From: Candidatus Latescibacterota bacterium | Lineage (GTDB): Bacteria > Latescibacterota > UBA2968 > UBA8231 | Assembly (NCBI GenBank): GCA_965261395.1 | Contig: OZ253462.1 | Location: 2,912,001-2,976,000, forward strand | Reading direction: 5' to 3' | DNA: 64,000 nt | Shown here: piece after piece, positions 50,192 to 64,000 of the stretch | Layout: the number at the start of each line of letters is the position of its first letter | Position numbering within the stretch: position 1 is the stretch's first letter | The notes under the pieces: generated by a model | Seen by the model: the letters and a program-made list of their open reading frames with translations, nothing else | What the model was told of the DNA's origin: nothing | Database searches by the model: none | Translations under genes and position numbers: made by a program

Positions 50192-51173
50192 GCCCGGTCC
50201 CGCGCAGCAAGGTTTCCTGCACTAAAAGCTCGTGGTCGAGTGAGCGGTCTGGCCCGTGCTCGCCCTTGAGCACTCGTACAAGGGACGCCAATTCGAGTTC
50301 GTAGAGTCCCTGCCGCGAAATTCCTTCAAAAGGCACCATTTGCATGCCTTCTGCATAGCCGTCGGCTGCCTCGGTCAGGCAGAGCCGGATGGTGTGGCCC
50401 GGCTCAAAAGGCTCTAGCAAAATCGCGCTGCCGCGCTCGCCATAGACTTCAAAGCGCCGGGCCATCGGCTGTGGCTCCATCGCCGCAATATCGACCCAGG
50501 CCATGGCCCGCTCGTATTCAAAAACGCCGAGCGTGTTGTCTTGAAACGCAGGCACGATTCCGGTGTCGTTGCGCAGGAAGGTCGTCACCTTGTCCGGCCG
50601 CCCCAGAATCCACACCACTTGGTCGAGCATGTGCCCGGCCAGATCGTAGAAGATGCCGCCGTGGTGACCGGCGGCGATTACTTCGCGCCCGGCTGTGGTA
50701 ATGTTGGTGGACATGTGGGCGCGCACCGAATAGACATTGCCCAAAACCCCCGACCGCGCCCACGCCGCGATCTGGCTGAAGCCAGGATGGTAGCGCAGCA
50801 TAAAGCCCATTTGCACTTGTAGATCGGCGGCCTGCGCCTCCGCTACGACCCGCTGCCACTGCGCCCAATCGTCCCCGGCGGGCTTGTCGTACCACACGTG
50901 CTTGCCGGCTTGGACGATGCGCCCGGTTTGGTCCAGGCTCTCGTCGTTGCGGCCCTCGGAGGCGACGGCGACAATGGAGCTATCGCCGAGCAGCTCTTCT
51001 TCACTGTCCAAGAAGCGGACCTGTCGATAGGGTTCGTCGTCGGCAACTTGTCGGCGGCGCTCGTCGTCGGGTTCGTACAGGCCGACGACTTCGACTTCGG
51101 GGTTGTCGAGCATTGCCTTGAGTTTGCCGGCGGCGTGCCCGTGCTTGGTGCCGTATTGCGCCATGCGGATCAT
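50178..51173 (-). CDS. Gfo/Idh/MocA oxidoreductase
   Basis: AGKHVWYDKP, GFMLRY, DLAGHMLD. Confidence 0.88.
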   Translation of the reverse strand: MIRMAQYGTKHGHAAGKLKAMLDNPEVEVVGLYEPDDERRRQVADDEPYRQVRFLDSEEELLGDSSIVAVASEGRNDESLDQTGRIVQAGKHVWYDKPAGDDWAQWQRVVAEAQAADLQVQMGFMLRYHPGFSQIAAWARSGVLGNVYSVRAHMSTNITTAGREVIAAGHHGGIFYDLAGHMLDQVVWILGRPDKVTTFLRNDTGIVPAFQDNTLGVFEYERAMAWVDIAAMEPQPMARRFEVYGERGSAILLEPFEPGHTIRLCLTEAADGYAEGMQMVPFEGISRQGLYELELASLVRVLKGEHGPDRSLDHELLVQETLLRGTGLIAG

Positions 51174-51200
51174 GGGATCTCCTCGTTGTAAAGGGGGAAG

Positions 51201-51327
51201 CAAAACCCGAGCAAACGTTGAAAATTGTCGTAAGATACTGTTTTTACAAGATATTTTAACATCCGAGACATCCGCTTATCGCCCAAAATCAAAACCCGAT
51301 CAAACGTTGGCCTCTCACGCCCAAAAC
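51201..51327. repeat. ~127 bp direct repeat, copy 1 (copy 2 at 52867-52993), flanking the AlbA_2 gene
   Basis: High identity by eye; each copy contains two CAAAACCCGATCAAACGTTG-like 20-mers. Confidence 0.9.
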
Positions 51328-52778
51328 GGCACGTAGCCCGATTGCGGACGCTCGGGGTCGGCGACTTTGATGAGTTGCCGGTCTCGCGCTCGTCGGATCA
51401 CCTGCGACACTTGTGCGGCATTTCGCGTATCTATACCTAAACGTGCTCGCAGGCTGCTGTTTTTCATCAATTCTCCATTCACGAACTTCAATACGGCGTG
51501 CTGATAGCACGCCCGGATGCGCTCTTCGACCGTCATCGCGGCAAATCGGCGCGGCGCAAAAAGAACCGCACAAGTCGCCTCTATCCCGCCTTCCTGGACG
51601 CGAAAATCCGGTGGCGGCAACTGATAGAGCTCCACAGCCGCCACGACCTTGTCGATACCTGTACCTTGCTCCTCGCACAACTTCATGCGCCGCATGAAAG
51701 CGGCAAGTGCTTCGTTTCTCGAGCGCGGCGGGGAGTCGATAAACCGATTGGGGCTGATCAGAGGCTTGCCCGGATTGGTGACCTCCAGCCGATTGCTGAA
51801 GAGTTCAATCGACGGTCCGGCTCCGGTAATAGTCATGTCTTGGTGAATAAGCGCATTGGCGATCAACTCGCGGAGGGCAATCGGCGGGAACAGCGGCTGC
51901 TCGATTCGGAAAACTTGGTCAATTTGCTCGTTCCTCGGTAACAGCCGGTCGATAAACTCAACAAGCTTGGCAAAGCCAACGGCATAACCGCGTGGTTCGT
52001 CGTGCCGGTGGGTTACCACATCCGCGCGTCCCATTCCATTGTAGGCCGTGAAGCGCACCGCCTTACGCGCAATCCGCGAGTCGAACTCATCGAGGCGATT
52101 GGCAAACAGAATCGCGCCCAGATTGGTGATATTCCAGCGGCCACCGACATCCGGGGTGATGATTCGGTCTTGGTTCAATCGCTCCAAGATTGCTTGCGGA
52201 TTGGCCATCAGTGATTGGTCCATAAGCGCGAAATAGCTCGCATAGTCAATGCGGGCCAGTACGTCATCGTCTGTGAGGAACTGTGCGGCGATGCCGCTTT
52301 CCCAGAGGTATGGCTGGAGTTTGTTCCAGAGAGTTTTCTGACGGTCAGGATAATCGGATAAGCGCGGTGTCGCCGAACCGATTCGGCAATATGCAGTGCG
52401 CTCAAACTCCACCGGACTTGTGGTTGCGGAGGGAATCTCAAGCAGAACCAGCCTTCCCTCTGGATGCGCCACAATCTGAAATGTGAAGGCGACATCTGGG
52501 CTGAGCCGCTGCGCCAGCCAAAACGCCAGCGGCTGGCCATGGCGTTTGACGGCATCCGGATCAAAGTGCGTCCCGGTTATGGCGCGATCAGAATCCCGCA
52601 CCCCCCAAAGCAGATAGGCGAAATCTCGCTCTGCCAGCGCAGCGGCATTGGAAAGAGCCGAGATGTATTTGCCGATCACGGGGGGCGCAAAGTTGTTTTC
52701 CTTGAACTCAACACAGGTGGTTTCGGCAGACGCCGCCAGCAAATCGTCGATCAGCGCGAGGGTGCGGGTGTCGTTCAT
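51315..52778 (-). CDS. Schlafen/AlbA_2 + HATPase_c_4 + HTH protein
   Basis: VEFKEN, SALSN, LRELIANALIHQD, NPG, EEQGTGIDK. Confidence 0.88.
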   Translation of the reverse strand: MNDTRTLALIDDLLAASAETTCVEFKENNFAPPVIGKYISALSNAAALAERDFAYLLWGVRDSDRAITGTHFDPDAVKRHGQPLAFWLAQRLSPDVAFTFQIVAHPEGRLVLLEIPSATTSPVEFERTAYCRIGSATPRLSDYPDRQKTLWNKLQPYLWESGIAAQFLTDDDVLARIDYASYFALMDQSLMANPQAILERLNQDRIITPDVGGRWNITNLGAILFANRLDEFDSRIARKAVRFTAYNGMGRADVVTHRHDEPRGYAVGFAKLVEFIDRLLPRNEQIDQVFRIEQPLFPPIALRELIANALIHQDMTITGAGPSIELFSNRLEVTNPGKPLISPNRFIDSPPRSRNEALAAFMRRMKLCEEQGTGIDKVVAAVELYQLPPPDFRVQEGGIEATCAVLFAPRRFAAMTVEERIRACYQHAVLKFVNGELMKNSSLRARLGIDTRNAAQVSQVIRRARDRQLIKVADPERPQSGYVPFWA

Positions 52779-52993
52779 GCGTTCATCCCCCTGCGGTCCC
52801 GTCTAGTCGGCAGTGCGCCGTGCTTGGTGCCGCTTTGCGCCATACGGTCTCGCGGAAAGGTGGAATCAAAACCTGATCAAACGTTGAAAATCGTCGTAAG
52901 ATACTGTTTTTACAAGAGACTTTAACATCCGAGACATCGGCTTTGCGCCCAAAATCAAAACCCGATCAAACGTTGGCCTTTCACGCCCAAAAC

Positions 52994-53084: not shown

Positions 53085-53316
53085 TTACTTTTAAATAAAC
53101 AAATCATTGTTTTTTAAGGACATTTGCCTTCGTTGAGCGGCGGGATGCACGTTGCAATAAAATAAAGTTTGCGCCAAAAGTCCAAATCGCCCTGCCGGTA
53201 GCCGAGCGTTTTGTGGATGGCTGCGGCTTGGCACGACAACTCGGATCACACTGCGACCAAGCCGTTATAAAATGCGGAGAAAATCAATTGTCAAACGAAA
53301 GAATGATTTTGCCACC

Positions 53317-56300
53317 CGGCTCATCCCCGCGTGTGCGGGAACATATTGCAGAGAGTCGCGGCGTAACAACTTCACCCGGCTCATCCCCGCGTGTGCGGGG
53401 AACATTTAATAGTTTGCCACATAATGTGGTTAACTAGCGGCTCATCCCCGCGTGTGCGGGGAACATACAATGTGAAATCTACGCTGGGGCACCGCATCCG
53501 GTTCATCCCCGCGTGTGCGGGGAACATCACCATTCGCAGATCGTAGTCGTTCACGCTAACGGTTCATCCCCGCGTGTGCGGGGAACATCAGGTTCATCGG
53601 ATATAGAGCGCCAGCGGCGACGGTTCATCCCCGCGTGTGCGGGGAACATTTGGTAGGCAACCCCCCATCATTGGACCAGGCCGGTTCATCCCCGCGTGTG
53701 CGGGGAACATATGCTGATGCTGGCGAGGGCGAAGGGGTTCATCCCCGCGTGTGCGGGGAACATCTCGACAAGGCCCGCGACCGGTCAGCCAAGACCGGTT
53801 CATCCCCGCGTGTGCGGGGAACATATGGTGGAGGTCATAGTCACCCTCTCCAAGCTCGGTTCATCCCCGCGTGTGCGGGGAACATTTGCAGATGTTGACG
53901 GGTGCATAATGCGTATCCGGTTCATCCCCGCGTGTGCGGGGAACATGATGTAAATTTCCTGTGTCGCGCGCCGTCTGCCGGTTCATCCCCGCGTGTGCGG
54001 GGAACATTTCACGCAGGCGGCCAAAGAAGGCAACGTCCGCGGTTCATCCCCGCGTGTGCGGGGAACATTCCCTGGTCTGCCGAACCGAATCGCTAAAATC
54101 CGGTTCATCCCCGCGTGTGCGGGGAACATATTAACGCTCATAGCATCCAGCCCCACCACGCCGGTTCATCCCCGCGTGTGCGGGGAACATGGGGTCAGAA
54201 TACCCATCAGGATATTTCCTTTCGGTTCATCCCCGCGTGTGCGGGGAACATCGCCCCAAGTGGTGCATCATGCACACCAAGGTCGGTTCATCCCCGCGTG
54301 TGCGGGGAACATTGCTCAATCCAAGTCGAACCCGATCTTTCGAGCGGTTCATCCCCGCGTGTGCGGGGAACATCGGCCTCAGTCCCTCTACAATAACATG
54401 ACCATCGGTTCATCCCCGCGTGTGCGGGGAACATCAACAGCTCGAAGACCTCATCGTCAGACAACTCGGTTCATCCCCGCGTGTGCGGGGAACATTGGTG
54501 GTGGTGGCCCTCCGCCGCCGATGTAAACGGTTCATCCCCGCGTGTGCGGGGAACATAGATTATGTATATATCGGCGCAACATCTACGCCGGTTCATCCCC
54601 GCGTGTGCGGGGAACATACCATGGCAACGCAAAACGTATTTCAGATCATCGGTTCATCCCCGCGTGTGCGGGGAACATCCACTTCGGTTTTTTTGAACGC
54701 GAAGGCTTCCCGGTTCATCCCCGCGTGTGCGGGGAACATCCACTTCGGTTTCTTCGAACGCGAGGGTTTTCCGGTTCATCCCCGCGTGTGCGGGGAACAT
54801 ACGACCTAGGATACAATTACAACTCAGCCGGCCGGTTCATCCCCGCGTGTGCGGGGAACATCAAGTCTCAGCCGAGCCCCATTTCTTCTCAGACGGTTCA
54901 TCCCCGCGTGTGCGGGGAACATAAAAACTCGCCTTTTTTGATCGCGTTGAACGCCGGTTCATCCCCGCGTGTGCGGGGAACATAAGCTCGGCCCCATGAC
55001 GTTGCGGTACTCTAACGGTTCATCCCCGCGTGTGCGGGGAACATCTGGGGCTTGAGCCTATGTCGGGGTCGCTTATCGGTTCATCCCCGCGTGTGCGGGG
55101 AACATTCGCAATGCCTTATTGCTTTGCGCGTCAACGTCGGTTCATCCCCGCGTGTGCGGGGAACATCTCCCTGTCGTCAAGGTGAAACAAGGTGCGACCG
55201 GTTCATCCCCGCGTGTGCGGGGAACATTTCGCGCAAGCCCTTTGCCGCTTCTGCGATCTCGGTTCATCCCCGCGTGTGCGGGGAACATTTCGTCAAAGCC
55301 TTTATGCTCGCCCGCAAAGCCGGTTCATCCCCGCGTGTGCGGGGAACATATGCTTGTAACCTTCTGAATGAGGTTGCAAGGCGGTTCATCCCCGCGTGTG
55401 CGGGGAACATTTCCCTATCGAGCAACAGCAGAGAATCAAAGTCGGTTCATCCCCGCGTGTGCGGGGAACATATCTCCTTCTTGACCGCGCTCGCGTCGAT
55501 GTCCGGTTCATCCCCGCGTGTGCGGGGAACATTTCGCATCTGAGCGCGTCCAGCACAAATTTCCCGGTTCATCCCCGCGTGTGCGGGGAACATTTTCGTC
55601 AAAGCCTTTATGCTCGCGTCGATGTCCGGTTCATCCCCGCGTGTGCGGGGAACATATGCAAGCAACCTGCTGAATGAGGTTGCAAGGCGGTTCATCCCCG
55701 CGTGTGCGGGGAACATCTATTGTATTGATTGTATTGAAACGCGAAACACGGTTCATCCCCGCGTGTGCGGGGAACATTAGGGTCAGTATCCTGCGAAGCG
55801 ATGCAATCCTGGTTCATCCCCGCGTGTGCGGGGAACATAAGCAACTGACGTATTGTATTGACGCGAAACACGGTTCATCCCCGCGTGTGCGGGGAACATT
55901 GTAAAGGAATCGCTCGCCGACTCGCTGCCGACGGTTCATCCCCGCGTGTGCGGGGAACATATCGCCAGTCAATGCAGTCCGGTAGAGTCAAGCGGTTCAT
56001 CCCCGCGTGTGCGGGGAACATACGGCGAAACTGCTCGACACCTATGTCGATAGCGGTTCATCCCCGCGTGTGCGGGGAACATACGCCGGGACAATCCGGC
56101 AAAACGCTTTACCACGGTTCATCCCCGCGTGTGCGGGGAACATATACAGATCAGATCAGATCAGATCAGATCAGCCGGTTCATCCCCGCGTGTGCGGGGA
56201 ACATTTTAAAATAGTGGTGGAAAGTGCTTGACAATGCGGTTCATCCCCGCGTGTGCGGGGAACATAAAAGGCCAGCGGTTAAAATTTAACTATTGACCGG

Positions 56301-57424
56301 TTCATCCCCGCGTGTGCGGGGAACATGTTTAACTCCCCTCACGGGAGGAGCCTATCACCGGTTCATCCCCGCGTGTGCGGGGAACATGCGCGCTCGGGGC
56401 TTTTCTCGATGCGCGTTTTCGGTTCATCCCCGCGTGTGCGGGGAACATAGGTAGGCCGTGTACGGCCCGGTTGCCGATACCGGTTCATCCCCGCGTGTGC
56501 GGGGAACATCGGTTTAACTGCCATTGCTGGCAGCCCATCACCGGTTCATCCCCGCGTGTGCGGGGAACATTGCGATAGGGAGCGCGTTTATTGTGCGTGT
56601 TACGGTTCATCCCCGCGTGTGCGGGGAACATTCTCAATTATTGCTTGTGTTGGTATCGGCTACCGGTTCATCCCCGCGTGTGCGGGGAACATCGGTTTAA
56701 CTCCCGTCGCCGGGAGCCCATCACCGGTTCATCCCCGCGTGTGCGGGGAACATTTCTGCAAAGCCTTTATGCTCGTCCTCAGGGCCGGTTCATCCCCGCG
56801 TGTGCGGGGAACATTGTAAAGGAAACGCCCGCCGGCTCGTCGCCGACGGTTCATCCCCGCGTGTGCGGGGAACATTCCGGTTGGAACAAGGTAGGTTTTT
56901 CCTGCTACGGTTCATCCCCGCGTGTGCGGGGAACATGTGTGGGCTGAACTTTGGATCAGCCCGTGCGGCGGTTCATCCCCGCGTGTGCGGGGAACATCCT
57001 TGTGAGTGTGCTGCGTTTCCTGGGCTGAGCGGTTCATCCCCGCGTGTGCGGGGAACATAATATCGGCCAGCTTGGCCGATACAATGTTCGCGGTTCATCC
57101 CCGCGTGTGCGGGGAACATTGAGCAACTTCGGCAATCAGCAAGGCAAGGGCCGGTTCATCCCCGCGTGTGCGGGGAACATCCTCTATCGTCAAGTATCTC
57201 TGGGTGCTGCGTCGGTTCATCCCCGCGTGTGCGGGGAACATCGGGTGCTAATGGCGTTGAATAGTGCGAGTAGCGGTTCATCCCCGCGTGTGCGGGGAAC
57301 ATCTGGTATTCTTCGTCCAGGTGTTTGCGAGCATCGGTTCATCCCCGCGTGTGCGGGGAACATAATACCCGCACTCACATGAGGTAAATTTCAATCGGTT
57401 CATCCCCGCGTGTGCGGGGAACAT
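53317..57424 (-). CRISPR. Type I-E CRISPR array, 68 repeats/67 spacers, repeat ATGTTCCCCGCACACGCGGGGATGAACCG
   Basis: 29 bp repeat, 61 bp period, mostly 32 bp spacers; degenerate repeats at the 53317 end, leader next to cas2; counted by eye. Confidence 0.98.
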
Positions 57425-57529
57425 ACTTAATCGTAACTGCTTGCTACAGTTTAGGTTATATGCCATGCAAAATAGCTACCGACTATTTGACCCCCGATTC
57501 ACCCACTCCACATATGCCGAGAACATACT
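57425..57529 (-). promoter_or_regulatory. CRISPR leader
   Basis: AT-richer non-coding segment between cas2 stop and first repeat. Confidence 0.75.
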
Positions 57530-57808
57530 TCACTCAGGCAAAAAAGATACGAGTCGAAGACCGTCAAAATCCACAGGTATCCGGCGGTTTGTGCCAAAGG
57601 TTTCAAACTCAAACCCCGCGTCATTGGGGGCGGCCCAAGCAATCACAGCATCACCGTCGCCGATGAGCTCGCACACATTGTCGCGGATCATAGCGCGGGT
57701 CTTTGCCGAGTAGTTGCCGATATAGACACCGGCTCGAAGTTCCAGAAGCCAAACCGCGAGCCGGCCCCGCAGGCGCGGCGGCACATTATTAGTCACCACT
57801 ATCATCAT
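57530..57808 (-). CDS. cas2: Type I-E Cas2
   Basis: VPPRLRGRLAVWLLELRAGVYIG, PVDFDGLRLVSF. Confidence 0.96.
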   Translation of the reverse strand: MMIVVTNNVPPRLRGRLAVWLLELRAGVYIGNYSAKTRAMIRDNVCELIGDGDAVIAWAAPNDAGFEFETFGTNRRIPVDFDGLRLVSFLPE

Positions 57809-58752
57809 CCTCGATGGCCCTCATCTCCGCTTGAAGGTGGATCGGCAAAGGCCGGGCCTACCGCATCATCTGGCATTTTCGGCGGCGGCAACTCGCCCGC
57901 TGCGAGCACTTCTCCGATGGTTGGAATCAGTCGCCTGAGCAGCTTGGTTCTGCGGAACGTGTCCCGACACGCCAAGCGCACTTCGCGCACAGGCTCGGCA
58001 GAACGCCCCTTCGCGTGCTGTCCCGCAATGCGAAACGCTGTCGGCACCGCCGTCTCAAATTTGAATAAATCGGCAATGTCGTACACAAAGGAGAGGGGTT
58101 TACCAGTATGCAAGAAGCCGACTGCTGGGGCATATCCAGCCGCGAGCACGGCGGCTTCCGTAATGCCGTAGAGGCAGGCAGTTGCTGCCGAGAGGCAGCG
58201 GTTGGGCACATCGGAGAAGTTCCAATCCGAAGGATCGTAGCTGCGCCTTTTCCACTGTACTCCAAACTGCCGCGCCAAATTCTCATAAAGCGCACGTACA
58301 CGCGCCCCCTCAATTCCGCGAAGCTGTTCGACAGAACGGCGTTGCGGCGCTCGCTCGTCAAATCGGATTTGATACATCCGCCGCACGATCTTCAGCCGAG
58401 CGTCGGGGTCAAGCGCGAGGCGGCACTGCCACAGAAGCCTGTCGGACCGGGCACCTCCCGGCTGACCAGCCGCGTATAGGCGCACCCCGGCTTCACCGAC
58501 CCATATCAGCAAAGTACCGACCCGTGCGGCGAGTGCCACTGCAGCATGACTGACCCGCGCACCAGGTTCGAGCATGATGCAAGCCAACCCGCCAACGGGG
58601 ATGTGCGTCCGCACCCCCTTTACATCTACGAGCACAAAAGCTCCATCGAGTACGTCGAGTTGGCCCTTCTCCACAAAAACGATAGAGGTGCGGTCCTTTA
58701 TGGGGATCGGCTTGGGGGGCGGAGCACCCGGCATTCTGTCAGGGCTAGCCAT
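57805..58752 (-). CDS. cas1: Type I-E Cas1
   Basis: MLEPGARVSHAA, GEAGVRLY, LRGIEG, GFLHTGKPLSFVYDIAD. Confidence 0.97.
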   Translation of the reverse strand: MASPDRMPGAPPPKPIPIKDRTSIVFVEKGQLDVLDGAFVLVDVKGVRTHIPVGGLACIMLEPGARVSHAAVALAARVGTLLIWVGEAGVRLYAAGQPGGARSDRLLWQCRLALDPDARLKIVRRMYQIRFDERAPQRRSVEQLRGIEGARVRALYENLARQFGVQWKRRSYDPSDWNFSDVPNRCLSAATACLYGITEAAVLAAGYAPAVGFLHTGKPLSFVYDIADLFKFETAVPTAFRIAGQHAKGRSAEPVREVRLACRDTFRRTKLLRRLIPTIGEVLAAGELPPPKMPDDAVGPAFADPPSSGDEGHRG

Positions 58753-58775
58753 CAAGCGATCCTGCGTATAAGCGA

Positions 58776-58865
58776 TGGTTCATCCCCGCATGTGCGGGGA
58801 ACACAGAGGTAGTCATCAGGCGATCCTGCGCATGAGTGGGTCATCCTCGCGTGTGCGGGGAACAT
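58776..58865 (-). CRISPR. Mini-array (2 repeats, 32 nt spacer) at the cas6e/cas1 junction
   Basis: Repeats at 58776-58804 and 58837-58865; flanked by duplicated CTGCGTATAAGC. Confidence 0.92.
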
Positions 58866-59608
58866 CTGCGTATAAGCATCAGGCCGCAGCCAAATGCCTT
58901 GCCGCGCCCGAATCCCTGCCGAAGGCGGGCGAGAAACGAGTTAGGCTCGGTTATGGTCAAAGCACCTTTGAGGTCGAATATGCCCAAAGTGCCGAATTTC
59001 CCACCGCGCCGTGCGAAACGCTCGGCTCGATAGCCTTCGAGCATCAGTGCGTCAAGGCAGAATCCGTATGCTTCGGCCCGCGCCGCTAGCCAGTCGTAGG
59101 CCGCCTTTTTGGCAAACTGCATCCGATACTTGGCGCGGTTGAGGGATTCATCCCCGCGTGTGCGGGGAACATTCTTGAGCAAGTCCATGGCCACATCGCA
59201 GCGTTGCCGTATGGCCGGTTCATTCCCGTGTGTGCGAGAAACTTTCCGATCGACCGTGGCGTTAAGGCGCAGATCGAACGCCAGCCGGTCTCCTGGCGAG
59301 AGTGTCGGCTCGAAGGGCTTCGTCTCGATAGCGAAGAAGGGAGAGTCTTCCAAAGGCTTGGGGCCGAGAAGATAGTACCGCCCGCGCTGGCGGTCGGCCC
59401 GCCAAAGAAACGCGGATTTCGGCGTACCGGCAGTCCGGCTCTGCTCTACCTCAGTACGCACATTTGGCGGGATGACCGTCCAGATCAGCCGGTGATCTAC
59501 CGCGAGGCGGTCAGACGACTTTGATGGCTGAAGGACCTGTAGCAGGGGAGCTATGTCTGCGGCGTCGCGCCGGAGCGTAAGACGCGAAAAGTGGAGTGGC
59601 TCACTCAT
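58841..59608 (-). CDS. cas6e: Cas6e (Cse3) crRNA endoribonuclease
   Basis: HRLIW, LAFDLRLNAT, C-terminal GFGRGKAFGCGL G-loop. Confidence 0.95.
   Translation of the reverse strand: MSEPLHFSRLTLRRDAADIAPLLQVLQPSKSSDRLAVDHRLIWTVIPPNVRTEVEQSRTAGTPKSAFLWRADRQRGRYYLLGPKPLEDSPFFAIETKPFEPTLSPGDRLAFDLRLNATVDRKVSRTHGNEPAIRQRCDVAMDLLKNVPRTRGDESLNRAKYRMQFAKKAAYDWLAARAEAYGFCLDALMLEGYRAERFARRGGKFGTLGIFDLKGALTITEPNSFLARLRQGFGRGKAFGCGLMLIRRCSPHTRG
59144..59244 (-). CRISPR. Two CRISPR repeats embedded in frame within cas6e
   Basis: 59144-59172 matches consensus 27/29, 59216-59244 matches 24/29. Confidence 0.88.
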
Positions 59609-60321
59609 TGCGAAGCCTCCTCTTGGTCAGTGGGAACGTATTCGTATTCGCGCCGTTGCCCGAACTGCCAGCTCGTGCGGTCGCCCGGCTCGTCCATCCG
59701 CAGTCGCATCCGCAAGGAAGCATCGAGAGGACCGAGGTCCGCCCGATCCTCCACGGCGATTAGGCCATTCGGCCCATCGCTATGGCGCTTGAACGCATCA
59801 ACGACCGTTTGTGCTTCAATGATCTCCGGCGCGAGTGGGTGGGACAGTGGGCAGGACTTGCGCCCTAAATACAATGTATAAGCTGGCTTCTCAAACCCAG
59901 CTTTGAGGTCCCGCAACGAGTATCGTCCGCCCGATATGGCTCGGTAAGCCGCCTGATAGCGCACATCTGTGCGGTACTCTCGGTGGGTGATACTCGTCGC
60001 AAGGTCCAAGGGATGGGAAAGTGCCTCCGCTCTAGTTCGGGGATGTCCCTTGGCCGAAGGCAGCGACTGGTAAGTGTGAAAATCCGTCACCAACGTCCCG
60101 GCGCACAGGGTGCGAGTAGCGACGCGGAAAGAGGCAGCAAGCGCCCGCTGCCCTTCCGCATCGGCGCGATCAATACCCAGCGCCGCGCCCGCCATCCCCA
60201 AAAGGGCAGATCGCGTTGGACGGTCGGCCGTGCCACGCCGCACATTGCCTGCCTCTTCGCCGAAGCTGGCAAAGGGTGCGGCCAAGGTAATAATTAACCA
60301 TTTCCTCGGTTCACCATTCAT
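59605..60321 (-). CDS. cas5e: Cas5e
   Basis: APFASFG, PTRSALLGMAGAALG, DFHT, LYLGRKSCP. Confidence 0.95.
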   Translation of the reverse strand: MNGEPRKWLIITLAAPFASFGEEAGNVRRGTADRPTRSALLGMAGAALGIDRADAEGQRALAASFRVATRTLCAGTLVTDFHTYQSLPSAKGHPRTRAEALSHPLDLATSITHREYRTDVRYQAAYRAISGGRYSLRDLKAGFEKPAYTLYLGRKSCPLSHPLAPEIIEAQTVVDAFKRHSDGPNGLIAVEDRADLGPLDASLRMRLRMDEPGDRTSWQFGQRREYEYVPTDQEEASQ

Positions 60322-60353
60322 TTTAGTCCCTTCGGGAATATATGTGGTTCGTG

Positions 60354-60443
60354 CGGTTCGTCCCCGCGGATACGGGGAACATCCTACGTGTAGTTGGATG
60401 TCGTCGCTTCAATCCGGTTCATCCCCGCAGGTGCGGGGAACGT
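60354..60443 (-). CRISPR. Mini-array (2 diverged repeats, 32 nt spacer) between cas7 and cas5
   Basis: Repeats at 60354-60382 and 60415-60443 with intact stems. Confidence 0.9.
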
Positions 60444-60462
60444 TTTGCCAAATAGCAAATTG

Positions 60463-61521
60463 CTACAGTTCCTCCGCTGCGAAGGCGGCTAGCTCCTCCA
60501 ACATGGCACTATCCTCTTCACCTACATGGAGTTCGCTGGCTTCCCAATCGTCGTCGTAGGTCTTCGCAAAGGCGGTACGCTGCTTCTTGAGTACCTTTAC
60601 GGACTCCCCGAGTTGGTCTTCCGATTTTACCGGCTTGGTGAAGGCACTAGCCAAGCTGCGAGGTTGGCTATCCCCGCGCTCTAACAACATGTATTCGGCG
60701 CGTACGTGATTGGCGAAGCTGTTTTTCTTACCGGAAGGCGATGCGGTCGCCGCAGCGCGTACTAGCGCGGAGAGCGCACGGCCTGCCAGTTCTGTATCGC
60801 TCGCAAGATTTTCCAGCAGCAGGACCCTATTTACGCAGATGTAGAGATAGAAGACGCCAGCGCCGAAACCCGCCTCTCCGATGAAACCCGCGCCCGCATC
60901 CTCTTCTGGGGTCTTCAGATCGTCAACAGCCGTGTAGTAGTCATCTTCAATATCGACTCGGTTGGTGGTAAAGGCATGAGCCACTTGCACGGCGGCATCG
61001 CGGTTGAAGTCGGGGTTGTCAGCCAACATGCGCCCGAACATAGCAATGTCCACGGCACCGTCGGCAGTGCTTAGGACCTGTTTCGCCAGTTCCTTTTCCT
61101 TCGGTAAGGTTTCCCCGCTCAGTGCCTTTTCTGCCAAATCGAATGCAGCAGCGCGTTCCTCCGGCGAGATGAAGGCTAGCTGTTCGGTATAGGCCGGATT
61201 TGGGTCTTTCTCATTCTTTACTTTACCGAACAGAGCAGCGATGGTCCGGGCGATTTCGAGCGCCTTGTCCTCCGAAGCACCCTTTTCTAGCAGATGCTCT
61301 CGCACCTTGTCGCCCATACGCTGCGTGCGCTCGCCTAGCTTTCCCGTTAGGGCGGACCGGAAAGCGTCGTCCGTGCGGATGGCGCGTTTGAGGGCTTGGC
61401 TGGAAATGCGCATCCGCGACACACCGCCGATGAAAGCGGTCTTGGGACGGCCGAGGTCGTCTCGGTTGGGGTTAGACGGTGGATAGGCTGTCAGAACGTG
61501 CATTTGCACAAAGCGGCTCAT
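60463..61521 (-). CDS. cas7: Cas7 (Cse4)
   Basis: PSNPNRDDLGRPK, RISSQALKR, DIAMFGRMLA, DYYTAVDD. Confidence 0.97.
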   Translation of the reverse strand: MSRFVQMHVLTAYPPSNPNRDDLGRPKTAFIGGVSRMRISSQALKRAIRTDDAFRSALTGKLGERTQRMGDKVREHLLEKGASEDKALEIARTIAALFGKVKNEKDPNPAYTEQLAFISPEERAAAFDLAEKALSGETLPKEKELAKQVLSTADGAVDIAMFGRMLADNPDFNRDAAVQVAHAFTTNRVDIEDDYYTAVDDLKTPEEDAGAGFIGEAGFGAGVFYLYICVNRVLLLENLASDTELAGRALSALVRAAATASPSGKKNSFANHVRAEYMLLERGDSQPRSLASAFTKPVKSEDQLGESVKVLKKQRTAFAKTYDDDWEASELHVGEEDSAMLEELAAFAAEEL

Positions 61522-62090
61522 AGTTGAGTCTCCTCTTGGGGTTGGGTGTTCTCTGCGGCATCGGTCCGCCGCGTGTGATAGTAATCAAAGGTCCATTTCT
61601 GCCGAGTCTGGTCGTTAAAGAAAAGCACATCGCCGATAAAGCGAGGAACGTCGAATGGCGCATCGCCCAAAATAGCAAGGGTCCGGCGCAGTGCCCGTGC
61701 GAACATGTCCACATCAGTGCCATCCTTGAGCAGGTTGCTGAAGCGCATGGGCGACAGGCGTGGACGGGCGTCGCCTTTGGGGATGGAACCATCCCACGTG
61801 AGGCCCAAGGCGTCAGCGAAGGGGGGGAGATGGGCGGTCCTCTCGGAGGGTTTAACCCGCGCAAGGGCCATAGCCAGCACGGCGAGGCGCTGCTCAAGCG
61901 CGTGGCCGGCGGTAGCCTTTTCATGCACACTGGCGATCAACCTGTGGGTTTCTGGCTCTAAGAGGGCGTCGAATACGCTTTCGCAGCGCTTCAGCCGCGC
62001 CCGTGCACCCCGGTCTCCGTGGTCCGCGTGAAGCGATACCCACCAGTTCACCACTGCATTGACGGTAGGGTTATTTCGGTTGAGCTGCAT
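61518..62090 (-). CDS. cse2: Cas11 (Cse2) small subunit
   Basis: DRGARARLKR, LSPMRF, W..DYY; position in operon. Confidence 0.9.
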   Translation of the reverse strand: MQLNRNNPTVNAVVNWWVSLHADHGDRGARARLKRCESVFDALLEPETHRLIASVHEKATAGHALEQRLAVLAMALARVKPSERTAHLPPFADALGLTWDGSIPKGDARPRLSPMRFSNLLKDGTDVDMFARALRRTLAILGDAPFDVPRFIGDVLFFNDQTRQKWTFDYYHTRRTDAAENTQPQEETQL

Positions 62091-63748
62091 TAAGCGGTCT
62101 CCTTTTTGGTTTTGGATTTTTTCTCTGGCAAAGGAAGTTCGAGCTTGTCGTAAAGCGACTTGCTCTGCTTGGTCCAGCCAGCAAAGGTTGCGTTCAAGAT
62201 GCCGTAGGCATTGACGATTGTCTTGGCCTTCTCGGCGTCTTGCAAGGGCACGGGTGCCAGTCGGTCAAAAGTCGCAAGGGCTGCGCGGCGCATGATACCT
62301 AGCCAGTGCCGTGCGAGAGCGGTCTGGTCGAAGCCCCCATCTTCGGGCATTTCTTGGAGCAGATCGTCGAGCAGGTGGTGGAATTGGTCCTCGGTTGCGT
62401 CGAAGAAATCAGCCCGCGCTTGGTCGAGAATCCCCTTATCGTTTGAGGCATTCTTCTGGCCGCTGAAAAGTGCCTTTTTCAAGGCTGTTAACAACTGAGA
62501 AACCGCTTGATCGGCGGCTTCGGAGAAATGTCGGGCGAGATCGTCGAGAGCCTGTTGTTGATCGGATGTATTCGCCAGATGCAAAGGCTCCTCGGCGATG
62601 AGATAGGCGATTGCTTCCATGTTGTTCATGGCCCAACCGCCAACGCGGATGCGAGCATCGGCCGCTTGTTTATTCTGGCTAAGGGAATGGGAGCGATTAT
62701 TCTTGGAGAGCTTGATATTTGTGGGCTGTTCAGCCAGCTTGCCATCCTTGCTCCCTACCGTGACGGCAACCCAGTCTCGATAGCCAAAGCGTCCTGATTT
62801 TGGCTTGGCCGAATACGGCTCCCCTGCCTCTTTCAGGCGGCGGTAGGGCGTCAGCGGATGCTGCCATAGCCCATAATTTGTGCCGTAGGGCCTCTGGATA
62901 AATCCGGTGACCAGCGGTTCTTTTCTGCCGGTCATGGAGCAGATGCCCGGCTCGCTGGAAAAGACTAGCTGGATGCGGCGCGGCATACCGAAATACGCCT
63001 GCAAGGGGTGGGCGTCTGCTAGAGATACAGTACGACTTTTTTCCGATGTGAGTGTCGGGGCCATCCAAGGCAGGGCCTTGGGCAACTCATCTATTGGGAG
63101 TCGTTTATCGCAAGGCACCACATTGGCGAAAATTTTGTGCCACAAAGGCACGGGCGTTGCATCGTCATTAGTCGCCGGAACGACCAGTGCCGTCAAAGGC
63201 CCGCCTCCACGCATGGAAGTGCGGTTCCCGGCACCGCCGGCCGGCGCGTAGGCTTGCAGGGTGTACAGCGTCATGGCCGCAGCCGGTAGGCCAAGGGCAG
63301 CATAGCGGTTGCGGTGAGTCAATAGGTCCGAGTTTTTGCGCTGGCCGTTTTGCCCTGGTGTGTCGATGAGCAGTAGTTCAATAGGAGTTTCGTTGCCTTG
63401 CAGGGGCTCATAGTCCTGTAGGAAGCGCGGCCCTTCGCCGTTGAGATAGAAGGCAGAAACAAGAGGGGCGAGCTTTTCGGCGAGCGCGTCTCTATCCGGC
63501 GGATTGGTCCAAAAAGGACGCCAGTCGTCCTCTTCGCGGATATCGAAGGCCAACGAAATCACGCCGATGCAGAACTCGAAGCTCGCCATGTTGAAATCCG
63601 GGCGCGGCCAGTTAAACTCGACCGGGTAGTCTTCATCCAAGCCGTTGCTTTTGGGTCCAGCCACTAGTTCGGGAAAGGCAAGCCATCTCTGTGCTCCAGA
63701 TCGCATGACGACCGGGAGAAAGGGATCACTGAGCAGATTAAAAGTCAT
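62090..63748 (-). CDS. cas8e: Cas8e (Cse1) large subunit
   Basis: FNLLSDPFLPV, PRPDF, F.L.GEGPRFLQD, APAGGAG..MRGGGP, MPRRI, HPLTPY. Confidence 0.95.
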   Translation of the reverse strand: MTFNLLSDPFLPVVMRSGAQRWLAFPELVAGPKSNGLDEDYPVEFNWPRPDFNMASFEFCIGVISLAFDIREEDDWRPFWTNPPDRDALAEKLAPLVSAFYLNGEGPRFLQDYEPLQGNETPIELLLIDTPGQNGQRKNSDLLTHRNRYAALGLPAAAMTLYTLQAYAPAGGAGNRTSMRGGGPLTALVVPATNDDATPVPLWHKIFANVVPCDKRLPIDELPKALPWMAPTLTSEKSRTVSLADAHPLQAYFGMPRRIQLVFSSEPGICSMTGRKEPLVTGFIQRPYGTNYGLWQHPLTPYRRLKEAGEPYSAKPKSGRFGYRDWVAVTVGSKDGKLAEQPTNIKLSKNNRSHSLSQNKQAADARIRVGGWAMNNMEAIAYLIAEEPLHLANTSDQQQALDDLARHFSEAADQAVSQLLTALKKALFSGQKNASNDKGILDQARADFFDATEDQFHHLLDDLLQEMPEDGGFDQTALARHWLGIMRRAALATFDRLAPVPLQDAEKAKTIVNAYGILNATFAGWTKQSKSLYDKLELPLPEKKSKTKKETA

Positions 63749-63792
63749 TGATATCTCCTTAAAATATATAACTAACCAACAGCTTACTACAT

Positions 63793-63821
63793 ACTCTAAA
63801 GAGGCAATCGTACCTTGTCAA
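63793..63821 (-). promoter_or_regulatory. Predicted cascade operon promoter TTGACA-17-TAGAGT
   Basis: Consensus -35 at 63821-63816, -10 at 63798-63793, AAGGAG RBS at 63760-63755. Confidence 0.75.
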
Positions 63822-63842
63822 GGGCAAGTTGCGGTCCATCAT

Positions 63843-63919
63843 TAATTAATCCCCGTGTGTACGGGGAACACGTTAGCCGACAGCATACTACGGCTCATTC
63901 CCGCGTCTGCGGGACAACA
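63843..63919 (-). ncRNA. crRNA-like regulatory RNA (CreR-type mini-array) with 19 nt spacer targeting the cas8e promoter
   Basis: Two diverged repeats with compensatory stems; spacer matches 63771-63789 with ATG PAM. Confidence 0.85.
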
Positions 63920-64000
63920 AATCTAAAGCCCAGTCGGGCACAGTACATAAAATAACCGTCATCCTTCGCCCCTTCCAATCGCACCCTACTGCCCCCTTCT

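Follow-up and report, generated by a model that had tools for sequence, protein, structure and literature searches.

A probable CreR-type mini-array directed at the cas8e promoter of a type I-E CRISPR-Cas locus from an uncultured Latescibacterota bacterium

Does the short repeat-spacer-repeat unit that lies between cas3 and cas8e in a type I-E CRISPR locus of a Candidatus Latescibacterota bacterium supply a guide with which the effector complex, Cascade, represses its own promoter? The unit is found in a window of 64,000 nucleotides (the whole stretch of DNA analysed, positions 2912001-2976000 of a 6.55-Mb single-contig genome), at the end of which the minus strand encodes a complete type I-E locus; in public collections the genome is closest to metagenome-assembled genomes (MAGs) labelled Candidatus Latescibacterota. 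An earlier examination of these nucleotides on their own, referred to here as the sequence-only reading, had proposed that the unit is a CreR-type mini-array targeting the cas8e promoter. Both the sequence features of the locus and its comparison with related genomes support this proposal, and we consider it probable that the element is a CreR-type, CRISPR RNA (crRNA)-like, regulatory mini-array of type I-E that serves as an autorepressor of the cas8e promoter. CreR-type self-regulation is already known in type I-E, and the locus described here is a further example, from an uncultured phylum.

Along the minus strand from cas3 to cas8e, the region contains a first degenerate repeat (psiR1), a spacer-like guide (psiS), a second degenerate repeat (psiR2), 21 nt of other sequence, a -35 element, a -10 element, the trinucleotide ATG, the target of the guide, and a last 22 nt that separate the target from the cas8e start codon (Table 1). 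The type I-E gene set in which the mini-array separates cas3 from cas8e is complete; the gap between these two genes is 146 bp, with 94 nt between psiR2 and cas8e. The spacer TAGTATGCTGTCGGCTAAC and the target TAGTAAGCTGTTGGTTAGT are identical at 14 of 19 positions, with mismatches at positions 6, 12, 15, 18 and 19, and there are 12 consecutive matches from the end proximal to the protospacer-adjacent motif (PAM) once every sixth, flipped-out, position is ignored. When the sequence was re-read, the coordinates of the target, the five mismatches and the ATG given by the sequence-only reading proved exact to the base, as did its placement of the ATG (63792-63790) directly after a predicted -10 box (TAGAGT, 63798-63793). 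This box stands at a 17-nt gap from a -35 hexamer (TTGACA, 63821-63816), and a consensus scan of positions 600-1300 of the longer stretch L002 found the predicted cas8e promoter as the sole minus-strand promoter-like site, with none besides it that could serve the guide. As expected of a CreR element, the guide can pair through its seed with a site that carries a PAM and lies at the predicted effector-gene promoter.

Of 200,000 shuffled spacers, none gave a run of 12 flip-tolerant matches at any place in the 94-nt region; a run of at least 8 together with a type I-E PAM was seen for 44 of the 200,000. The sequence-only reading had counted ATG among the accepted type I-E PAMs, in agreement with its description as functional in Kuznedelov 2016, and the protospacers of two other self-derived spacers carry AAG and ATG PAMs in related genomes. 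No further PAM-flanked seed match was found within the locus. Elsewhere in the 6.55-Mb genome two sites reach 12-13 effective matches (G000:C1 288082 and 4858013, both on the minus strand, with 13 and 12 consecutive effective matches; the site at 4858013 shares 14 nt of identity with the spacer). Their PAMs are GTG and CTA, which are not those of type I-E, they lie in GC-rich, coding-looking DNA with no repeat nearby, and their number is about that expected by chance (~0.8, from 1.3e7 positions / 4^12); we take both to be chance matches.

The two flanking repeats are degenerate in different ways. The last 8 nt of psiR1, ATGAGCCG (63898-63891), form the predicted 5' handle of the guide; they match ATGAACCG at 7 of 8 positions, and the canonical repeat of a sister species (L036) has the same end. 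psiR1 folds as a 6-bp hairpin, the outermost stem pair of which is U-A, compared with C-G in the array repeat. In psiR2, 18 of the first 21 nt, the predicted 3' hairpin of the guide, are kept, the last 8 nt having decayed to AT-rich sequence (4 of 8), and it folds as a 7-bp hairpin in which an inner C-G pair has become U-A by changes on both arms, giving a stem variant that is the canonical repeat of an unrelated type I-E locus (L085). Both pseudo-repeats retain their stems, a change on one arm being matched on the other, and to judge from their sequences they look to have been under selection for structure. psiR1 preserves the handle part and psiR2 the hairpin part, and this asymmetry is the pattern given for CreA and CreR in the account of Liu et al.; a conserved handle (here at 7 of 8 positions) and a preserved stem are also what the repeats flanking a CreR mini-array should retain. 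A detail that lay beyond the view of the sequence-only reading is that psiR1 overlaps the last seven sense codons and the stop codon of cas3; the Cas3 tail FVVPQTRE* is encoded by a repeat and the stop codon falls inside the 5' handle of the guide. No terminator was found between cas3 and cas8e, and an Rfam search of positions 57300-64000 returned no family match except one chance match to a long non-coding RNA. Two of the 24 sequencing runs listed are recorded as RNA (X19 and X20, with shares of 0.10 and 0.07). The runs placed on the stretch L250 were X19, X20, X2 and X6, all as assembled contigs, in which ends and strand cannot be read, and the failure of RNA contigs to cover L250 5679-7014, which contains the mini-array and its target, is uninformative either way.

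Table 1. Positions of the mini-array, its target and the surrounding type I-E features in the window.
Feature	Position	Strand	Basis or remark
cas3, 3' end	63895..64000	-	Open reading frame (ORF) extends past the window (L002 3678..895, 927 aa)
cas3 stop codon TGA	63897-63895	-	ORF list; tail translation ...GFRFVVPQTRE*
psiR1, degenerate repeat	63891..63918	-	GTTGTCCCGCAGACGCGGGAATGAGCCG; 21/28 identical to array repeat (anchored at 3' end)
psiS, 19-nt spacer-like guide	63872..63890	-	TAGTATGCTGTCGGCTAAC; identical in 5/7 genomes
psiR2, degenerate repeat	63843..63871	-	GTGTTCCCCGTACACACGGGGATTAATTA; 22/29 identical to array repeat
Predicted sigma-70 promoter of cas8e	63793..63821	-	Consensus scan, 10/12
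PAM ATG	63790..63792	-	Starts directly after predicted -10 box
Protospacer (target)	63771..63789	-	TAGTAAGCTGTTGGTTAGT; spans predicted transcription start site, ~63786
cas8e Shine-Dalgarno sequence AAGGAG	63760-63755	-	Inside the 22 nt between target and cas8e start
cas8e	62090..63748	-	NCBIfam type I-E model, above cut-off; start at 63748
cse2	61518-62090	-	NCBIfam type I-E model, above cut-off
cas7	60463-61521	-	NCBIfam type I-E model, above cut-off
cas5	59605-60321	-	NCBIfam type I-E model, above cut-off
cas6e	58841-59608	-	NCBIfam type I-E model, above cut-off
cas1	57805-58755	-	NCBIfam type I-E model, above cut-off
cas2	57530-57808	-	NCBIfam type I-E model, above cut-off
Main CRISPR array	53310..57424	-	At least 66 repeats ATGTTCCCCGCACACGCGGGGATGAACCG; 63 spacers of 32-33 nt

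We examined whether the arrangement is kept in relatives. A Cas8e-based scan of species-representative genomes yielded 26 loci, in all of which the 330 nt upstream of cas8e were read, and a DNA search of 168 genomes of the phylum gave matches in 11, the source genome included, which are near full-length in five others; some match was present in 8 of 30 other genomes of the same genus. Spacer and target are both present in seven genomes (G000, G134, G135, G102, G125, G127 and G144), all seven with the PAM ATG and the -35 hexamer TTGACA, and in G125 and G127 the PAM forms part of the -10 element. Positions 1-5, 7-8, 10-11, 13-14 and 16-17 are invariant in spacer and target across the seven; variation is limited to positions 6, 9, 12 and 19 of the spacer and to positions 6, 9, 12, 15, 18 and 19 of the target, and the flipped-out positions 6, 12 and 18 are all among these six variable positions (hypergeometric P=0.02). 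G144 has C at position 9 of the spacer and likewise of the target; five of the six other genomes have T at both sites, and on the evidence of the aligned sequences this is a compensatory change; G144 also matches at position 12. It is the most distant carrier, with a Cas3 81% identical to that of the source genome, and in it cas3 is separated from the mini-array by 620 nt that contain an additional small ORF; its Cas3, which has no repeat in its end, stops two residues past the shared FR. The intergenic flanks of G144 are largely unalignable with those of the source genome, and because of this the PAM and target stand out as an island of conservation. The small ORF itself (L008 2460-2686, plus strand) combines a hydrophobic stretch at the N terminus with a heptad-like repeat (...LEAQIERLDGRIDRIETQMH...), and a similar sequence is located upstream of cas8e in L007.

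Among the matches examined, wider searches added no carriers to these relatives. A pattern scan of genome contigs gave 85 stretches, five of which have two matches about 100 nt apart, and all five are known relatives (L308 being G144); a match in another Latescibacterota MAG (L277) was rejected as a further instance, being a chance match without repeats. A metagenome scan for the handle plus seed returned at least 117 stretches, and among the matches listed none has a target-like motif downstream and most spacers that start with the seed are about 32 nt long, like those of ordinary arrays. Scanning IMG/VR with a degenerate spacer/target pattern gave 12 matches, none of them beside a repeat-like hairpin. 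Free-standing two-repeat units with 21-nt spacers starting TAGTA and with TGgTACAAT-like -10 boxes upstream were noticed in L177 (~4392, plus strand) and L197 (minus strand), metagenome contigs with a different type I-E repeat; no target with at least 7 effective matches was found near the short-spacer mini-arrays of L177, L197 or L116/L220.

From the sequences, their conservation and the single co-variation we infer how the element could operate. Transcripts reading through from cas3 would carry psiR1, the 19-nt spacer and psiR2. Type I-E Cas6e cleaves precursor crRNA 8 nt ahead of the spacer and again after the hairpin, and here it would cut at the 3' base of each hairpin to release a guide of about 48 nt, consisting of the 8-nt handle AUGAGCCG, the 19-nt spacer and a 21-nt hairpin. 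Such processing is described as independent of spacer length (Kuznedelov 2016), and Escherichia coli crRNAs with 20-nt spacers are reported to be processed and to form Cascades that are two Cas7 subunits short, with a short R-loop and, even at full complementarity to the target, only very weak interference. The short guide would similarly build a Cascade with about four rather than six Cas7 subunits, which, given the ATG PAM and the intact seed, would form a short R-loop of 12-14 effective bp just after the -10 element and across the predicted start site, and would block RNA polymerase both at initiation and in read-through from cas3. The sequence-only reading stated that short partial R-loops bind without licensing Cas3; in the literature, interference and priming are reported to need more than 18 bp, and 5 bp plus a PAM are enough for binding. 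As the guide pairs at no more than 16 positions and is mismatched at the PAM-distal end, Cas3 should not be licensed and the chromosome should stay uncut. Repression would require free Cascade and would relax when crRNAs, of which the main array is the competing source, or anti-CRISPR proteins occupy it, giving a negative feedback loop; titration of this kind is inferred by analogy with the Salmonella work.

The sequence-only reading regarded the principle as known, and the published systems bear this out. In Salmonella enterica ATCC 51960 a type I-E CreR is reported to share 15 consecutive nucleotides with a target that has an AAG PAM and lies about 140 bp upstream of casA, and to repress the casA promoter about 8.6-fold (bioRxiv 10.1101/2023.03.10.532045). 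As described there, that element resembles ours in being a degenerate mini-CRISPR upstream of casA/cas8e that keeps the psiR1 handle and the 3'-handle part of psiR2, and in having a spacer whose pairing starts at its 5' end and whose target, flanked by a PAM, lies at the casA promoter. It has no toxin gene, and the 94 nt before our cas8e leave no room for one; the feedback proposed for both would sense crRNA load and anti-CRISPRs. The Latescibacterota element differs in having 12 effective consecutive matches, an ATG PAM, a target directly after the -10 element and 22 nt before the start codon, a 19-nt spacer, and a psiR1 inside the cas3 reading frame; moreover, the Salmonella CreR was tested when driven from a plasmid promoter, whereas ours is known from sequence. 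Shmakov et al. (2023, PMC10120712) report mini-arrays located next to cas3 and directed at the cas8 promoter for about 19% of 3,741 type I-E loci, and for type I-F1 the same survey describes shortened spacers as well as mismatches at positions 6 and 12. Like the type I-E, I-F1, I-B and I-D mini-arrays described there, the present one lies beside cas3, has a cas8-promoter target with a canonical PAM and tolerates mismatches at sixth positions, and like the I-F1 example it has a spacer shorter than normal. The survey as published stresses long (>200 bp) gaps between cas3 and cas8 and retained just repeat-like matches outside ORFs, whereas the gap here is shorter and psiR1 overlaps cas3; its E. 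coli mini-array is transcribed opposite to cas3, whereas ours is co-directional. The proposed action would also resemble that of CreA of the Haloarcula hispanica type I-B system, in Liu et al.'s account a Cascade-bound degenerate crRNA that represses a promoter by partial complementarity without cleavage; CreA also controls the toxin CreT, whereas no toxin is discernible at this locus. Viral short-spacer mimics (Cracr RNAs) are reported to form complexes two backbone subunits short that nonetheless bind promoters, with structures solved (bioRxiv 10.1101/2024.10.29.618823). By analogy, the short spacer here may likewise yield a complex of reduced size that still binds a promoter, although Cracr RNAs are phage-encoded and act against the host, whereas this element resides in the host's own operon.

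Besides the mini-array, the operon contains three more repeat pairs. A second one, between cas7 and cas5 (60354-60443, minus strand), consists of a repeat (26/29), a 32-nt spacer GATTGAAGCGACGACATCCAACTACACGTAGG and a repeat (25/29), is also present in L030, L031 and L035, and has a spacer that copies the 3' coding region of cas7. In four close relatives without this pair the cas7 site has an AAG PAM and is 26-29/32 identical to the spacer; in the four carriers identity is 20-21/32 with seed positions 7 and 8 broken, and in the source genome the site has also lost its PAM and carries a 3-nt deletion. In sequence terms this pattern looks like escape from self-targeting. At the cas6e/cas1 junction (58773-58865, minus strand) the source genome alone has a 93-nt insert of a repeat, a 32-nt spacer, a repeat and TCG, which is flanked by an 11-nt direct duplication, CTTATACGCAG, and the first repeat of which holds the cas6e stop codon. 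Its spacer copies the cas6e/cas1 junction, where relatives have the PAM ATG; against the copy just downstream, which has the PAM TCG, it matches at 26 of 32 positions, with mismatches at 3, 6, 18, 24, 28 and 30, four of the six being every-sixth positions (P=0.002). Within cas6e there are two in-frame repeat copies on the minus strand, 43 nt apart (59244-59216, 24/29; 59172-59144, 27/29), encoding ...VSRTHGNEP... and ...NVPRTRGDES..., a loop of the protein; weak copies are present in L029 only (19 and 21 of 29), and L030, L031, L032, L033, L035 and L036 lack 18 nt there. In a scan of about 2.5 kb either side of cas6e in 62 other type I-E loci that have an array, four showed additional repeat-like copies in the stretch from cas7 to the array; three of the four are the cas7-cas5 mini-array of this clade, and none has a copy inside cas6e.

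A more speculative extension is that the guide is carved from the 3' end of the cas3 message and that the cas operon is wired for RNA-level feedback by Cas6e, and on the sequences at hand we think this rather doubtful. The predicted psiR1 cut would split the last cas3 sense codon after its second base (GA|A TGA), and if the idea were true each guide made would leave a cas3 mRNA without a stop codon, lowering Cas3 output and coupling nuclease supply to guide maturation. Cas6e could then cut the polycistronic message at four places, its own coding region included, and it might cut its own message at the in-frame copies.

Several observations weigh against promoter autorepression by the mini-array. 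The promoter and start site are consensus predictions and the steps of the mechanism are reasoned rather than observed; the altered stems and the 19-nt guide, 1 nt under the 20 nt that a 32-nt spacer minus two 6-nt Cas7 steps would give, raise doubt over acceptance by Cas6e and loading. In G125 spacer and target differ at position 9, leaving 7 consecutive effective matches. The six co-linear sequences have a mean column identity of 87% over the whole region, and given this close kinship conservation alone is weak evidence, with just one compensatory event to add to it. A sister locus (L006/L237) has a 19-nt spacer with no convincing target by eye, G138 (L010) has kept psiR1 only, cas8e coming straight after it with promoter and psiR2 absent, and the element is decayed or reduced in L006/L237, L007 and L010; from these losses it follows that the circuit is dispensable. 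The same kinship and losses would be expected if the element were a neutral relic, that is, a spacer acquired from the cas8e promoter region of its own genome that was shortened and mutated out of autoimmunity and has no regulatory role. The lineage does acquire self-derived spacers, as the mini-arrays at the cas7-cas5 and cas6e-cas1 junctions copy nearby cas sequence with AAG or ATG PAMs. Escape from self-targeting, however, normally strikes the PAM or the seed, as at the cas7 protospacer in all four carriers, whereas at the cas8e promoter both are intact in seven of seven genomes and just the distal end and the non-pairing positions are free to vary; this internal contrast supports autorepression. 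Nor does a relic account well for changes that include all three non-pairing positions, for the co-change of position 9 in G144, or for two hairpins preserved via changes on both arms, and we consider it unlikely.

A different possibility is that the main job of the element is RNA processing, the hairpins being Cas6e sites that separate the cas3 and Cascade messages or stabilise their ends, and the promoter match a by-product of origin. The position of psiR1 exactly on the cas3 stop codon with no terminator behind it, the retention of psiR1 alone in G138, and the further repeat pairs at other gene junctions of the operon all fit such a role, which can coexist with promoter repression. It leaves unexplained, however, why the PAM, seed and spacer are conserved, why position 9 co-varies, and why the target is placed at the -10 element and start site in every genome, and as the main function we regard it as very unlikely. 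Lastly, the guide could be an antitoxin of the CreTA type, repressing a gene for a small toxic RNA or peptide and not, or not only, cas8e; CreA elements share the architecture, and one guide is reported to be able to act as repressor of a toxin as well as of cas genes (Liu et al., bioRxiv 10.1101/2023.03.10.532045). Here promoter, target and Shine-Dalgarno sequence take up the 94 nt that separate psiR2 from the cas8e start, and the targeted promoter runs straight into that Shine-Dalgarno sequence and the start codon, leaving no room for a toxin gene under it. A search of the locus gave no other PAM-flanked seed match, the two best matches genome-wide have non-I-E PAMs, and we reject such a module as extremely improbable. 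Autorepression of the cas8e promoter therefore remains the preferred explanation.

Further features of the locus were noted in passing. Cas3 has the Pfam domains Cas3_HD, DEAD and Cas3-like_C_2. No protospacer for the spacers of the main array was found in the genome itself, and no PAM could be derived by that route. The array includes one 24-nt spacer (53711-53734, minus strand), which follows a repeat ending CCC instead of CCG. It also holds, at 54651-54800 and 55288-55716, neighbouring near-duplicate spacers (80% alike) and a block of spacers that recurs, with differences, at a distance of about 306 nt, suggestive of a segmental duplication or of repeated spacer uptake from variants of a single target. 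Outside the array, just past its far end, a 487-aa ORF (51315-52778, minus strand) without an NCBIfam match is bracketed at 51139-51327 and 52818-52993 by direct repeats of 138 nt (92%) and 30 nt (90%), and ORF and flanking repeats together may be a mobile element.

The probable CreR-type mini-array described here would extend self-regulation of this kind in type I-E to the Latescibacterota, a phylum represented by MAGs only in the collections used. It is a compact example, with guide, promoter and target all within 170 bp, and its seven natural variants form a mutational series for the number and positions of base pairs that a repressing Cascade needs. Since at least one survey, as published, dropped repeats that overlap ORFs, the reported frequency of such elements may be an underestimate. 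The presence of the cas3 and cas6e stop codons within repeats also raises the idea that Cas6e tunes cas messages directly.

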